Shown piece after piece: positions 62,769 through 63,882 of a stretch of DNA of 64,000 bases (position 1 is the stretch's first letter; the number at the start of each line of letters is the position of its first letter). The position numbers and the translations under genes are program-made. Source of the stretch: Parcubacteria group bacterium (lineage in GTDB: Bacteria > Patescibacteriota > Minisyncoccia > Phycocordibacterales > WO2-35-19); contig JAAZAU010000009.1 of assembly GCA_012514175.1 (NCBI GenBank), positions 32,283-96,282 of the forward strand, in the 5' to 3' direction. The notes under the pieces are model-generated. The model was not told the DNA's origin. It worked only from the letters and a program-made list of their open reading frames with translations, and did not search any database.

Positions 62769-62789
62769 TATACAAAAGGAAATTATTGC

Positions 62790-62818
62790 TTGACACAAGA
62801 GTCATAATATGATATACT
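62790..62818 (+). promoter_or_regulatory. Consensus sigma70-like promoter (TTGACA-17-TATACT) immediately upstream of hammerhead ribozyme
   Basis: TTGACA at 62790-62795, a 17-nt spacer, and TATACT at 62813-62818. The predicted TSS (~62825) is at the first nucleotides of ribozyme stem III. Confidence 0.55.
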
Positions 62819-62825
62819 TAATATA

Positions 62826-62911
62826 GTGCTGTCTCAGAGTGTGAACTCTGACTGATGAGTCCAGCTTTCGCCAAAGCTTTAATTTGGCAAAGCAAAAGGA
62901 CGAAACAGCTA
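62826..62911 (+). ncRNA. Type III hammerhead self-cleaving ribozyme
   Basis: gcuGUC^ cleavage triplet. Stem I is the hairpin UCAGAGU-GUGA-ACUCUGA. Core CUGAUGA. Long stem II is GUCC...GCUUU..GCCAAA-gcuuuaau-UUUGGC..AAAGC..GGAC. Core GAAA. Stem III 3' strand CAGC pairs with 5' GCUG. Confidence 0.8.
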
Positions 62912-62956
62912 GTTCATTAAAAAATTTTTTGCCACTATGGTGGCAAGGAGGAAATA

Positions 62957-63754
62957 ATGGATGAGAGGTTATGGATATTGGGCGCAGGGGACCCGGAAAT
63001 GGAAGCAATTGAGGGTCTGCTTCGCTCTGTTGGGGAGAACGTCGTTTACGCTATGAACAGCGGAAAACGAGTTCACCCCGGCAACGCCTACAAGGGAGAG
63101 ATCTCGTCAAACACCACCTCGTTGTCCGCCACCGAGATTTTTTTGGTGGAGTGCGAGGTGCCGGTGATGGAAGGGGTTTGGTGGACGGTGATTGATCATC
63201 ATCGTCCGGGTGACCCGGGATACGGGCAGCCTCCAGAGAACTTTTGGGAGGCTAGCAGTGTTGGTCAAGTGTTCGCCAAGTTGGAAGAGATTTATGGCGA
63301 ACATTTTGCCGACGAGCAGTCGGTGAGCCAGTTGCGTTTGGTTGCTGCAGCTGATCACTGCTTGGGGTCGGCATACCGGGGTGAATGCCCCGGAATTGAC
63401 CCCAATGCGCTGATGGAGTGGCGCATAAGGTCTCGGGCCAAATTCCAAAACCGTCCCGTGGAAGAAGTTATGAGGGACGTGGAGAAGGCCCGAAAAGCTC
63501 TCCGTGCCGCTTCCAGGGTGGCGGAGCTCCCCGGCCATGTGGCCGACTTCCGGTCTGGAACGATTCCAGAATTGCCGGAAGCGGCTGCTCGGGAAGGCAT
63601 TGCCTTCCTGGCCGAAATGAACGACCGTGGACGTCGGAAGGTCGTTCTACAAGCGGCGAATTCAAAACAGGTTGCTAAGTTTCTGGTAACCTACCCCGCC
63701 GTAGGGAAATACGGCGACCCAGCCCGCGGATTCGCGGGTGGCTATCTTGAGTAG
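62957..63754 (+). CDS. GC-rich (~60% GC) foreign-looking hypothetical protein (265 aa) downstream of hammerhead ribozyme
   Basis: Strong SD AAGGAGG 6 nt before the ATG. Its composition is very different from the AT-rich surrounding genome. No domain recognised (contains ILGAGDPEM, IDHHRPGDPG). Confidence 0.6.
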   Translation: MDERLWILGAGDPEMEAIEGLLRSVGENVVYAMNSGKRVHPGNAYKGEISSNTTSLSATEIFLVECEVPVMEGVWWTVIDHHRPGDPGYGQPPENFWEASSVGQVFAKLEEIYGEHFADEQSVSQLRLVAAADHCLGSAYRGECPGIDPNALMEWRIRSRAKFQNRPVEEVMRDVEKARKALRAASRVAELPGHVADFRSGTIPELPEAAAREGIAFLAEMNDRGRRKVVLQAANSKQVAKFLVTYPAVGKYGDPARGFAGGYLE

Positions 63755-63767
63755 GTTTTTTTCTTCA

Positions 63768-63822
63768 GGGCCCGATTGATTTGCGTTAATTTGCGCGCAA
63801 ACTCAATCGGGTCCTTTTTTGT
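63768..63822 (+). terminator. Rho-independent terminator (compound hairpin GGCCCGATTGA...TCAATCGGGTCC + T-run)
   Basis: Outer stem CCCGATTGA/TCAATCGGG encloses an inner TTTGCGC/GCGCAAA hairpin, followed by TTTTTTGTTTT. Confidence 0.6.
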
Positions 63823-63882
63823 TTTCCACCACCCGACTTATTAAAGGTTGGGGGTGATGTAAATATACGATATAATTAAAAT

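Follow-up and report, generated by a model that had tools for sequence, protein, structure and literature searches.

What does a self-cleaving RNA do when it lies between a promoter and a single foreign gene in a bacterial chromosome? We address this question for a locus in a stretch of 64,000 nucleotides (nt) from contig JAAZAU010000009.1 of a Parcubacteria group bacterium (hereafter the window, with positions counted from its first letter), where a type III hammerhead ribozyme lies just upstream of a GC-rich open reading frame (ORF) for a protein of 265 amino acids (aa). Our answer builds on what computation gives directly, namely the sequence and structure of the ribozyme, the match of the promoter to consensus, a gene that is foreign and whose site is empty in relatives, and the fold of the encoded protein. 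The explanation that we consider probable, while leaving real room for others, is that a promoter-proximal hammerhead gives the messenger RNA (mRNA) of a recently acquired phage-type gene a fixed and structured 5' end that carries a hydroxyl group (5'-OH).

Anatomy and fold of the ribozyme

By sequence and fold, the stretch 62826-62911 is a complete and statistically supported type III hammerhead for which self-cleavage is predicted. Its parts are the following:

62826..62911, + strand: type III hammerhead ribozyme (Rfam RF00008, 34.2 bits, E 2.9e-5; family model R2, 60.4 bits, E 1.8e-12; minimum-energy fold)
G62828-U62832 (GCUGU) paired with A62905-C62909, + strand: stem III, 5 base pairs (bp) including A15.1-U16.1, open
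Between C62833 and U62834, + strand: predicted cleavage site, after the GUC triplet 62831-62833
62834..62851, + strand: stem I hairpin UCAGAGU-GUGA-ACUCUGA (fold; the equivalent 6 pairs covary in the family)
62852..62858, + strand: catalytic core strand CUGAUGA (sequence, Rfam alignment)
62859..62901, + strand: stem II, with a GUCC/GGAC base (62859-62862 paired with 62898-62901), an 11-bp bulged extension and an 8-nt loop
62902..62909, + strand: core GAAA (62902-62905) and stem III 3' strand CAGC (62906-62909) (sequence, Rfam, fold)

The conserved core (C3 U4 G5 A6 N7 G8 A9 ... G12 A13 A14) and the N-U-H cleavage triplet are present in full. Each of the 11 invariant core positions holds the right nucleotide, the pairs G10.1-C11.1 and A15.1-U16.1 are correct, and the pairs adjoining the core are formed (U62834-A62851, 1.1-2.1; G62859-C62901, 10.1-11.1; A62905-U62832, 15.1-16.1). 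The two 7-bp arms of stem I (62834-62840 and 62845-62851) close the GUGA loop, and comparison with the family described below offers an alternative register of 6 bp with a UGUGAA loop. In stem II, A62863 and A62894-62897 are unpaired, the latter forming an AAAA internal loop on the 3' side. When the RNA 62826-62960 was folded without constraints, the minimum-energy structure was the expected three-way junction (-46.8 kcal/mol, z -4.33), a stability that was equalled by 0 of 200 shuffled sequences. An earlier note on this DNA, made from the letters alone, had read the GUC, the 7-bp stem I with its GUGA loop, the CUGAUGA, the extended stem II, the GAAA and the CAGC complementary to GCUG from the sequence, and all of these are found where it placed them.

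The same note had called the element a canonical hammerhead and had proposed an Rfam/Infernal scan. A permissive Rfam scan of 62720-64000 (1.3 kb) matched Hammerhead_3 (RF00008) over model positions 1-54 of 54 with the significant E-value listed above, but the score stays under the curated gathering score of 48.5 bits, and a scan at gathering thresholds reported only the 23S and 5S rRNAs and not the hammerhead. Complete and statistically supported as the ribozyme is, the word canonical is therefore slightly generous, since the curated Rfam threshold is missed. Much of the shortfall stems from a 35-nt insertion in stem II, to which non-consensus stems I and III add. The two covariance models (R1, R2) and Rfam alike found a single hammerhead in the window. 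Two residues that are unpaired and near-invariant in the family, the U that opens loop I (U62840) and the A before GGAC (A62897), are both kept, and they are candidates for a tertiary contact between stems I and II that may allow fast cleavage at physiological Mg2+.

Promoter and transcription start

The ribozyme directly follows a promoter whose counterpart lies at the other end of the insert, ahead of a gene for a VWA protein:

62790..62818, + strand: sigma-70-type promoter (-35 TTGACA 62790-62795, 17-nt spacer, TG 62810-62811, -10 TATACT 62813-62818)
62811..62824, + strand: left 14-nt repeat copy GATATACTTAATAT, comprising the -10 hexamer and discriminator, with the same sequence as L212 has immediately ahead of its VWA ATG
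62825, + strand: transcription start A, placed by promoter alignment 7 nt after the -10 hexamer
63869..63882, + strand: right 14-nt repeat copy GATATAATTAAAAT, with the native VWA promoter -10 TATAAT at 63871-63876 and the VWA ATG at 63883

The promoter, which the earlier note had described as TTGACA-17-TATACT, is indeed near-consensus, matching at 11 of 12 positions and carrying an extended -10 TG in addition. Sites with at least 11 of 12 matches occur only six times on both strands of the 64 kb (128 kb of sequence), and one of them lies ~330 nt upstream of the 23S rRNA; in view of this rarity and this placement, near-consensus sites appear to be meaningful in this genome. The 14-mer GATATAMTTAAWAT is present in exactly two copies in the window, at 62811-62824 and 63869-63882. 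As both of them flank the insert, it can be ruled out as a general promoter motif.

The VWA gene has the same start in three related genomes (L211, L212 and L213), in which exactly six nt separate the -10 hexamer from the ATG and a Shine-Dalgarno sequence is lacking. A start of this leaderless type is seen in all four genomes (window, 63844-63885; L211, 202-244; L212, 5961-6003; L213, 5961-6003), and lack of a leader seems to be a trait of the VWA gene in this clade. Judged by these alignments, the window holds two copies of the host's leaderless-type VWA promoter, and the ribozyme promoter reads as a paralogue of the native one. We place the +1 position at A62825 because this residue corresponds by homology to the first base of the start codon at the orthologous leaderless VWA promoters. 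It lies 3 nt before stem III, in agreement with the 1-3 nt that the earlier note had predicted.

Origin of the inserted gene

62609..62714, + strand: 5S rRNA gene, end of the 23S-5S operon (Rfam RF00001, 80.7 bits)
62733..62773, + strand: intrinsic terminator of the rRNA operon (15-nt inverted repeat I1, 100% complementary, then a T-run)
62957..63754, + strand: foreign gene, ORF of 265 aa (ORF call; GC at third codon positions, GC3, 0.617)
63767..63825, + strand: intrinsic terminator of the cassette (20-bp hairpin 63767-63815 and U-tract, -31.5 kcal/mol, z -6.6; inverted repeat I3)

With a GC content of 56.9% and a GC3 of 61.7%, the ORF stands out from the window, which has 36.7% GC overall, and its GC3 contrasts with the values of 0.214 and 0.230 in two adjacent host genes. 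The coordinates that the earlier note had given for the ORF hold; its estimates of ~60% GC for the ORF and ~33% GC for the surroundings were too high and too low, respectively. The insert is flanked by rRNA, VWA and FtsW genes, and no prophage or integrase is evident in its immediate flanks. In the three relatives, whose VWA proteins are 66-68% identical to that of the window and whose source names are Patescibacteria, Zambryskibacteria or Paceibacterota, the spacer between 5S rRNA and VWA measures ~70-155 nt, as against 1168 nt in the window, and the ORF is absent from it. The GC3 contrast, the empty site in relatives and the homologues in phage contigs (see below) together argue that the ORF is compositionally and phylogenetically foreign and was horizontally acquired, as the claim of an alien gene in the earlier note had it. 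The long hairpin terminator that the note had seen behind the ORF is likewise present. The host genome itself looks to be that of a Paceibacteria-like member of the Patescibacteria, with the insertion falling between the 5S rRNA and VWA genes. As a by-product, the locus offers a clear-cut case in which a gene was inserted into a leaderless promoter and the promoter was duplicated.

A predicted 5'-hydroxyl end of the mRNA

In the mechanism that we propose, a phage-type gene for a DHH-family phosphodiesterase was inserted between the 5S rRNA and VWA genes so as to lie between two copies of the VWA promoter. Transcription would start at A62825 from the left copy, whose -35 element is now the consensus TTGACA, and the nascent RNA would fold co-transcriptionally into the 62826-62911 hammerhead and cut itself after C62833. 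Cleavage would free a 9-nt AGUGCUGUC fragment (pppAGUGCUGUC>p) and leave an mRNA that opens, with a 5'-OH, immediately at the 7-bp stem I hairpin; downstream of it come the remainder of the ribozyme, a further hairpin, the Shine-Dalgarno sequence and the ORF. In the computed fold, the predicted 3' cleavage product begins with the stem I hairpin and has zero unpaired 5' nucleotides. The outcome would be a fixed, structured and non-phosphorylated 5' end that is independent of promoter context. In model bacteria, decay that depends on the 5' end (RNase E, RNase J) is hindered by a 5'-terminal hairpin as well as by a missing 5' phosphate, and the end predicted here should resist decay of this kind. 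What we infer from the locus is where transcription would start, that cleavage would occur in vivo and how it would affect stability and expression.

Between the ribozyme and the gene, two further features were found:

62912..62962, + strand: nested leader structure (fold -18.8 kcal/mol, z -4.05)
62945..62951, + strand: Shine-Dalgarno sequence AAGGAGG (sequence; 5 nt ahead of the ATG)

In the inner leader hairpin (62925-62950, 11 bp), a U-tract pairs with GUGGCAAGGAG, and in the outer helix (8 bp) GUUCAUUA pairs with UAAUGGAU. According to the model, masking by this leader may damp translation or make it conditional. Read on the minus strand, the leader hairpin at 62929-62946 resembles a terminator (a hairpin, then A6U6); no minus-strand gene converges on it, and the site is probably incidental.

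The encoded protein

The earlier note had suggested a profile search of the 265-aa protein. Searches against Pfam, PHROG, NCBIfam and PADLOC came back empty or insignificant, but the protein has 1376 homologues, whose hosts include Pseudomonas, Azotobacter, Rhodanobacter, Burkholderiales, Myxococcales, Planctomycetes, several Patescibacteria and one archaeon. Homologues were also found on 49 viral contigs, where their neighbours are phage genes of early or replication type. An alignment of 30 members revealed the invariant motifs LGAxDPEM, DHHRPGDPGYG, ASSxGQ, AAADHCL, PELPEAA and YGDPxRGFAGG, and the residues D12, E14, D80-H81-H82 and D133-H134, which correspond to DHH and acidic metal-binding motifs, are invariant in these homologues. 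At the C-terminus, the motif GFAGGY stands where DHH/DHHA1 phosphoesterases have GGGH. Among the homologues P0001-P0120, many carry insertions at two variable sites; one such insertion, rich in cysteine (CxxC...CxxC), follows a helix that ends near residue 185 (for example in P0068, P0117 and P0103).

Structure prediction pointed in the same direction. The AlphaFold2 model (pLDDT 94.7, pTM 0.90) had NrN as its top match among structures of the Protein Data Bank (PDB) in Foldseek (TM 0.54-0.59, probability 1.00), followed by NrnA, PggH and RecJ, the probabilities ranging from 0.99 to 1.00, and a search of a viral structure library with the model returned DHH phosphohydrolases. In a profile search of PDB sequences, the GAsDPEM (GxxDxEM) and DHH motifs aligned with NrN, weakly (E 0.28). 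From the model and the motifs, we conclude that the protein is a divergent DHH/DHHA1-type predicted phosphodiesterase with a two-domain fold. NrN is a DHH phosphodiesterase associated with type III-B CRISPR that degrades SAM-AMP, a defence second messenger (PMC10600005). Since the family found here is also largely phage-borne, an anti-defence role is by analogy a reasonable hypothesis, and the family is a candidate degrader of nucleotide second messengers. With more than 1,300 members in phages, Proteobacteria, Patescibacteria and archaea, this DHH/NrN-like family, missed by four domain libraries, is a second by-product of the analysis.

A metagenomic family of related hammerheads

Relatives of the ribozyme were collected by scanning metagenome contigs with the pattern CTGTC-N12-30-CTGATGAGTCC-N10-40-GGACGAAACAG. 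The scan returned 69 loci (L142-L210) with 54 distinct ribozymes, which resemble the window copy in several respects: stem I has 6 bp and a loop with a near-invariant U as its first residue, stem II is extended, its 3' side being unpaired, purine-rich and ending in a near-invariant A before GGAC, and an A-rich tail follows. Stems II and III and the core blocks are invariant by construction of the pattern and thus uninformative, whereas its choice has no bearing on the register of stem I, the U of the loop or the A ahead of GGAC. For stem I, 99.7% of alignment cells are paired, with compensatory changes in 6 of 6 pairs, as compared to 31-43% pairing in slid controls. The covariance model R2, built from the 54 family sequences with the window left out, detected one site in the 64 kb, at 62825-62912, with the score listed above. 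When two members, the window copy and that of L136, were compared with Rfam, they reached ~33-34 bits and stayed under the gathering score.

The context of these ribozymes is stereotyped. Most of them sit after a hairpin and UU, that is, at the end of an upstream gene, and the typical order is upstream hairpin, UU, CUGUC, ribozyme, A-rich tail, often a GUUCUUU motif, Shine-Dalgarno sequence and ATG. A GUUCUUU-like motif follows within a few nt in 24 of the 54 ribozymes, the window reading GUUCAUU, and the Shine-Dalgarno sequence and start codon typically lie 20-140 nt further on. The stem II extensions are simple hairpins that vary widely in length and sequence and share no conserved pocket. 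On several contigs (L147, L167, L182 and L187), two to three copies are found 0.5-1 kb apart, as in the following examples from the pattern scan:

L182, 843-911, 1817-1885 and 2879-2947, - strand: repeated family hammerheads
L147, 2163-2228 and 3213-3278, - strand: repeated family hammerheads
L167, 12885-12965 and 13401-13481, + strand: repeated family hammerheads

Multiple copies preceded by hairpins fit the published picture of hammerheads that cut polycistronic phage RNA (PMC3088659). Nine genes that follow family hammerheads gave almost no matches to PHROG or Pfam, and the phage origin of the family is for this reason a presumption drawn from the literature. Exact and near-exact pattern scans of viral contigs did not find the window's ribozyme variant. 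These at least 54 distinct hammerheads with extended stem II and a stereotyped gene-boundary context constitute a third by-product.

Ribozyme and gene are not a recurrent unit

The earlier note had suggested looking for the same combination of hammerhead and ORF elsewhere. Among ~135 homologous loci with usable upstream sequence, none has a window-type hammerhead upstream of the gene. CUGANGA occurs within 300 nt upstream of 11 of the 135 homologues, which is about the chance expectation. A strict regular expression (CUGANGA...GAAA with contiguous stem II, applied to 133 loci) found the ribozyme in the window lineage only, but was too strict, and a looser descriptor covering three topologies gave many weak false positives, the convincing matches being a pair on the viral contig L095. 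These two well-formed hammerheads, one of type III and one of type II (3450-3518 and ~2213-2279, both on the minus strand), lie on the opposite strand to the DHH-like gene (4001-5035, plus strand) and 0.5-1.8 kb away from it. The closest homologues with available DNA, P0005 and P0007 (on L214 and L215), reside in tight operons that leave no room for a ribozyme.

The family model matched near homologues only twice, in the window and at one Saccharibacteria locus that is represented by three contigs:

L136, 9018-9082 (= L005, 5006-5070; L137, 1732-1796), + strand: Saccharibacteria hammerhead (family model)

This hammerhead is located between the homologous DHH-like gene, ~100 nt upstream of it, and a 74-aa zinc-ribbon ORF. 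With GGACAAAAC, it has a G12A change and is, going by that substitution, probably inactive. The DHH-like gene is GC-rich here, too (GC3 0.67 in a 40% GC genome). A transfer RNA (tRNA) gene at 7496-7569 on the minus strand of L136, ~430 nt upstream of the DHH-like gene, suggests an integrated island.

One further candidate was tried on L140, a phage contig that carries one of the closest homologues with DNA. At 3925-3992 (plus strand), directly before the Shine-Dalgarno sequence, it carries two overlapping CUGAUGAG cores, followed by CGAAAC, a 5-bp CCGG/CCGG hairpin and GUC, and further upstream a CCUCC complementary to the Shine-Dalgarno GGAGG. This look-alike of a type I hammerhead has no consistent stems I and II and no Rfam match at E up to 10; it is ambiguous. 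Ribozyme and gene do not form a recurrent cassette: they share a type of neighbourhood, phage-like accessory regions, and are not a fixed unit.

Weighing the explanation and its rivals

Several points weigh against the proposed 5'-end mechanism. The RF00008 score of the ribozyme is below the curated threshold, and the high score of R2 is partly circular, the fixed blocks of the search pattern having been taken from the window sequence. The known copies of the ribozyme (L001-L004) are identical, so that it has no covariation of its own. The leader fold covers the Shine-Dalgarno sequence (via the U-tract) and the AUG (via GUUCAUUA) instead of exposing them, and as only ~9 nt would be removed, there is little upstream context to insulate against. 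mRNA stabilisation in Patescibacteria would moreover be an extrapolation from E. coli and Bacillus. Finally, the hammerhead is missing upstream of ~135 homologues, the closest of which lie in tight operons, which implies that the gene does not need the ribozyme.

These last data lead to the serious rival, which we consider unlikely but worth keeping in view. It holds that the hammerhead is a passenger that arrived with DNA of the donor phage or mobile element, where it cut polycistronic RNA between genes, and that its position behind a promoter is accidental, of no benefit to the host, be the ribozyme active or decaying. Family members normally do follow an upstream hairpin in multi-gene transcripts, sometimes in closely spaced copies, the gene does not regularly come with the ribozyme, and the Saccharibacteria copy, downstream of a homologous gene and with its G12A change, illustrates that such copies do decay. 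In the window copy, by contrast, the core is intact. The ribozyme starts within 3 nt of the inferred +1, behind a -35 element of perfect consensus, an arrangement that is unlikely to result from a random junction, and the cassette is 99.9% conserved in four samples, although this identity may only mean a recent origin.

The proposed mechanism has a more far-reaching extension, to which we give a distinctly smaller chance still. In this extension, the hammerhead would be a selected, portable 5' module by which an alien gene is stably expressed from a captured host promoter, amounting to a general route for the domestication of phage accessory genes in Patescibacteria, and the abutment of ribozyme and +1 would be owed to a specific mode of insertion that uses a target or core repeat of ~14 bp. 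If true, the transcript would, right at its beginning, exchange a 5'-triphosphate for a 5'-OH carried by a terminal hairpin, and the gene so expressed may be an anti-defence phosphodiesterase.

Improbable in our estimate is a regulated ribozyme or leader, in which the stem II extension or the masking leader would sense a ligand, a protein or temperature and thereby render cleavage or translation of the phosphodiesterase mRNA conditional. The 35-nt insertion in stem II goes far beyond catalytic need, the leader fold is significantly stable and hides the Shine-Dalgarno sequence and the start codon, and regulated cleavage has been raised as a possibility for phage hammerheads by Perreault et al. 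(PMC3088659). Opposed to this are the variable, plain hairpins that make up the stem II extensions of the family, with no conserved pocket, the lack of any riboswitch match in the permissive Rfam scan of 62720-64000, and the make-up of the masking pairs, which are mostly A-U and G-U.

We regard it as very improbable that the element merely resembles a hammerhead by chance and does not cleave. Such a reading could appeal to the score under the Rfam gathering threshold and to cleavage being only predicted, but it would have to account for the Rfam E-value, for the 11 correct invariant positions along with the G10.1-C11.1 and A15.1-U16.1 pairs, for three helices in a minimum-energy fold of z -4.3, and for the element being the sole match of the family model in the window.

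An artefact is scarcely credible, whether through chimeric assembly with DNA of a high-GC organism or through a contaminating engineered construct of the RiboJ type: for all the sharp GC step at the ORF, the designed look of the order promoter, ribozyme, hairpin and ribosome-binding site (RBS), and the blocks GCUGUC, CUGAUGAGUCC and GGACGAAACAGC, which we take to be the same as in the sTRSV/RiboJ hammerhead, the protein is carried on 13 Logan contigs from at least four sequencing runs with the 5S-cassette-VWA junctions kept, and belongs to a natural family with its more than a thousand relatives. Four of these contigs, from independent assemblies, read across 5S rRNA, cassette and VWA and are 99.9% identical to the window at both junctions, which, as far as sequence data reach, excludes the chimerism that the earlier note had thought of as an objection. 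The synthetic origin is rejected as well, because the shared blocks are common in natural metagenome contigs (69 of them) and because RiboJ differs in stem I, in the stem II extension and in the leader.

The adjoining 23S rRNA gene

Upstream of the insert, the 23S rRNA gene (58719-62519, plus strand) measures 3801 nt as compared to a model of 2925 positions, indicating ~0.9 kb of insertions, and it holds no ORF of at least 90 aa. The same 23S region of the relatives L212 and L213 contains LAGLIDADG ORFs. There is no 16S rRNA within 58 kb upstream of the 23S-5S pair, which implies that this pair is unlinked from 16S.

Significance and comparison with known systems

Should the predicted cleavage take place, the locus would represent a working hammerhead in the chromosome of an ultrasmall bacterium of the Patescibacteria and a clear natural counterpart of the RiboJ design, in which the primary 5' end is replaced by a hydroxyl on a hairpin. 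To our knowledge, RNA processing in Patescibacteria is essentially unstudied. The three by-products, that is, the hammerhead family, the DHH/NrN-like family and the promoter insertion, may be of greater use than the single locus. Among the top-ranked literature matches, no paper joined hammerheads and Patescibacteria.

Compared with the type III model RF00008, the ribozyme has the same catalytic core, GUC site, looped stems I and II, open stem III and GUCC/GGAC base of stem II. It differs by its 35-nt stem II insertion and another stem III (34.2 versus 48.5 bits) and by its host, a chromosome of Patescibacteria instead of a viroid, a satellite or a eukaryotic repeat. Members of its own metagenomic family usually follow a hairpin and UU, whereas the window copy follows a promoter.

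The protein resembles NrN (PDB 9lq9/9lqa/9lqb) in fold, in the N-terminal GxxDxEM and DHH motifs and in size (~250-265 aa). Their identity is only 16-17%, GFAGGY replaces GGGH, and the window protein has no Pfam DHH/DHHA1 match. While NrN sits in CRISPR/CorA neighbourhoods, there is no CRISPR or CorA near the window gene, and its family is mostly phage-borne.

Bacterial hammerheads that neighbour phage-derived genes have been on record since 2011 (Perreault et al., PMC3088659). In prophages, such ribozymes are found around individual genes, ardA of Agrobacterium tumefaciens among them, and their cleavage has been seen both in vitro and in vivo; in the haloviruses HF1/HF2, the HHphage ribozyme lies 13 nt before the start codon of a helicase gene, with the mapped 5' end at the cleavage site; and phage hammerheads cut polycistronic RNAs into single-gene mRNAs (PMC3088659). 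The window shares with these cases a (here predicted) self-cleaving ribozyme right upstream of a phage-type accessory gene, where it would set the 5' end of the mRNA, as well as the setting in foreign or mobile DNA and an associated gene that differs from case to case. In the 2011 examples, however, several hammerheads bracket genes inside a long polycistronic RNA, whereas the window has one, without an array, at +2 to +4 of a promoter and with a terminator after the ORF. The tie of bacterial hammerheads to prophage or mobile DNA that the earlier note had invoked thus agrees with this precedent (PMC3088659), with a foreign gene absent in relatives and with a family common in viral contigs. For the same reason, and given that the ribozyme comes from a populous metagenomic family, the note's word unusual was an overstatement.

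RiboJ, the sTRSV hammerhead with a 23-nt hairpin between promoter and RBS, raises mRNA and protein levels (PMC6206723). The order of promoter (62790-62818), type III hammerhead (62826-62911), hairpin (62925-62950), Shine-Dalgarno sequence (62945-62951) and gene is the same in the window, and in both cases the body of the ribozyme would form the 5'-terminal structure after cleavage. The window element is natural and not derived from sTRSV, its stems I and II differ, and its hairpin pairs with the Shine-Dalgarno sequence and the AUG, whereas that of RiboJ frees the RBS. We therefore treat the likeness as a functional analogy only. What is known from these systems is the type III hammerhead beside a phage-derived accessory gene; what the locus would add is its host lineage, a ribozyme located within the first nucleotides transcribed from a duplicated leaderless promoter, and the associated family of uncharacterised phosphodiesterases.

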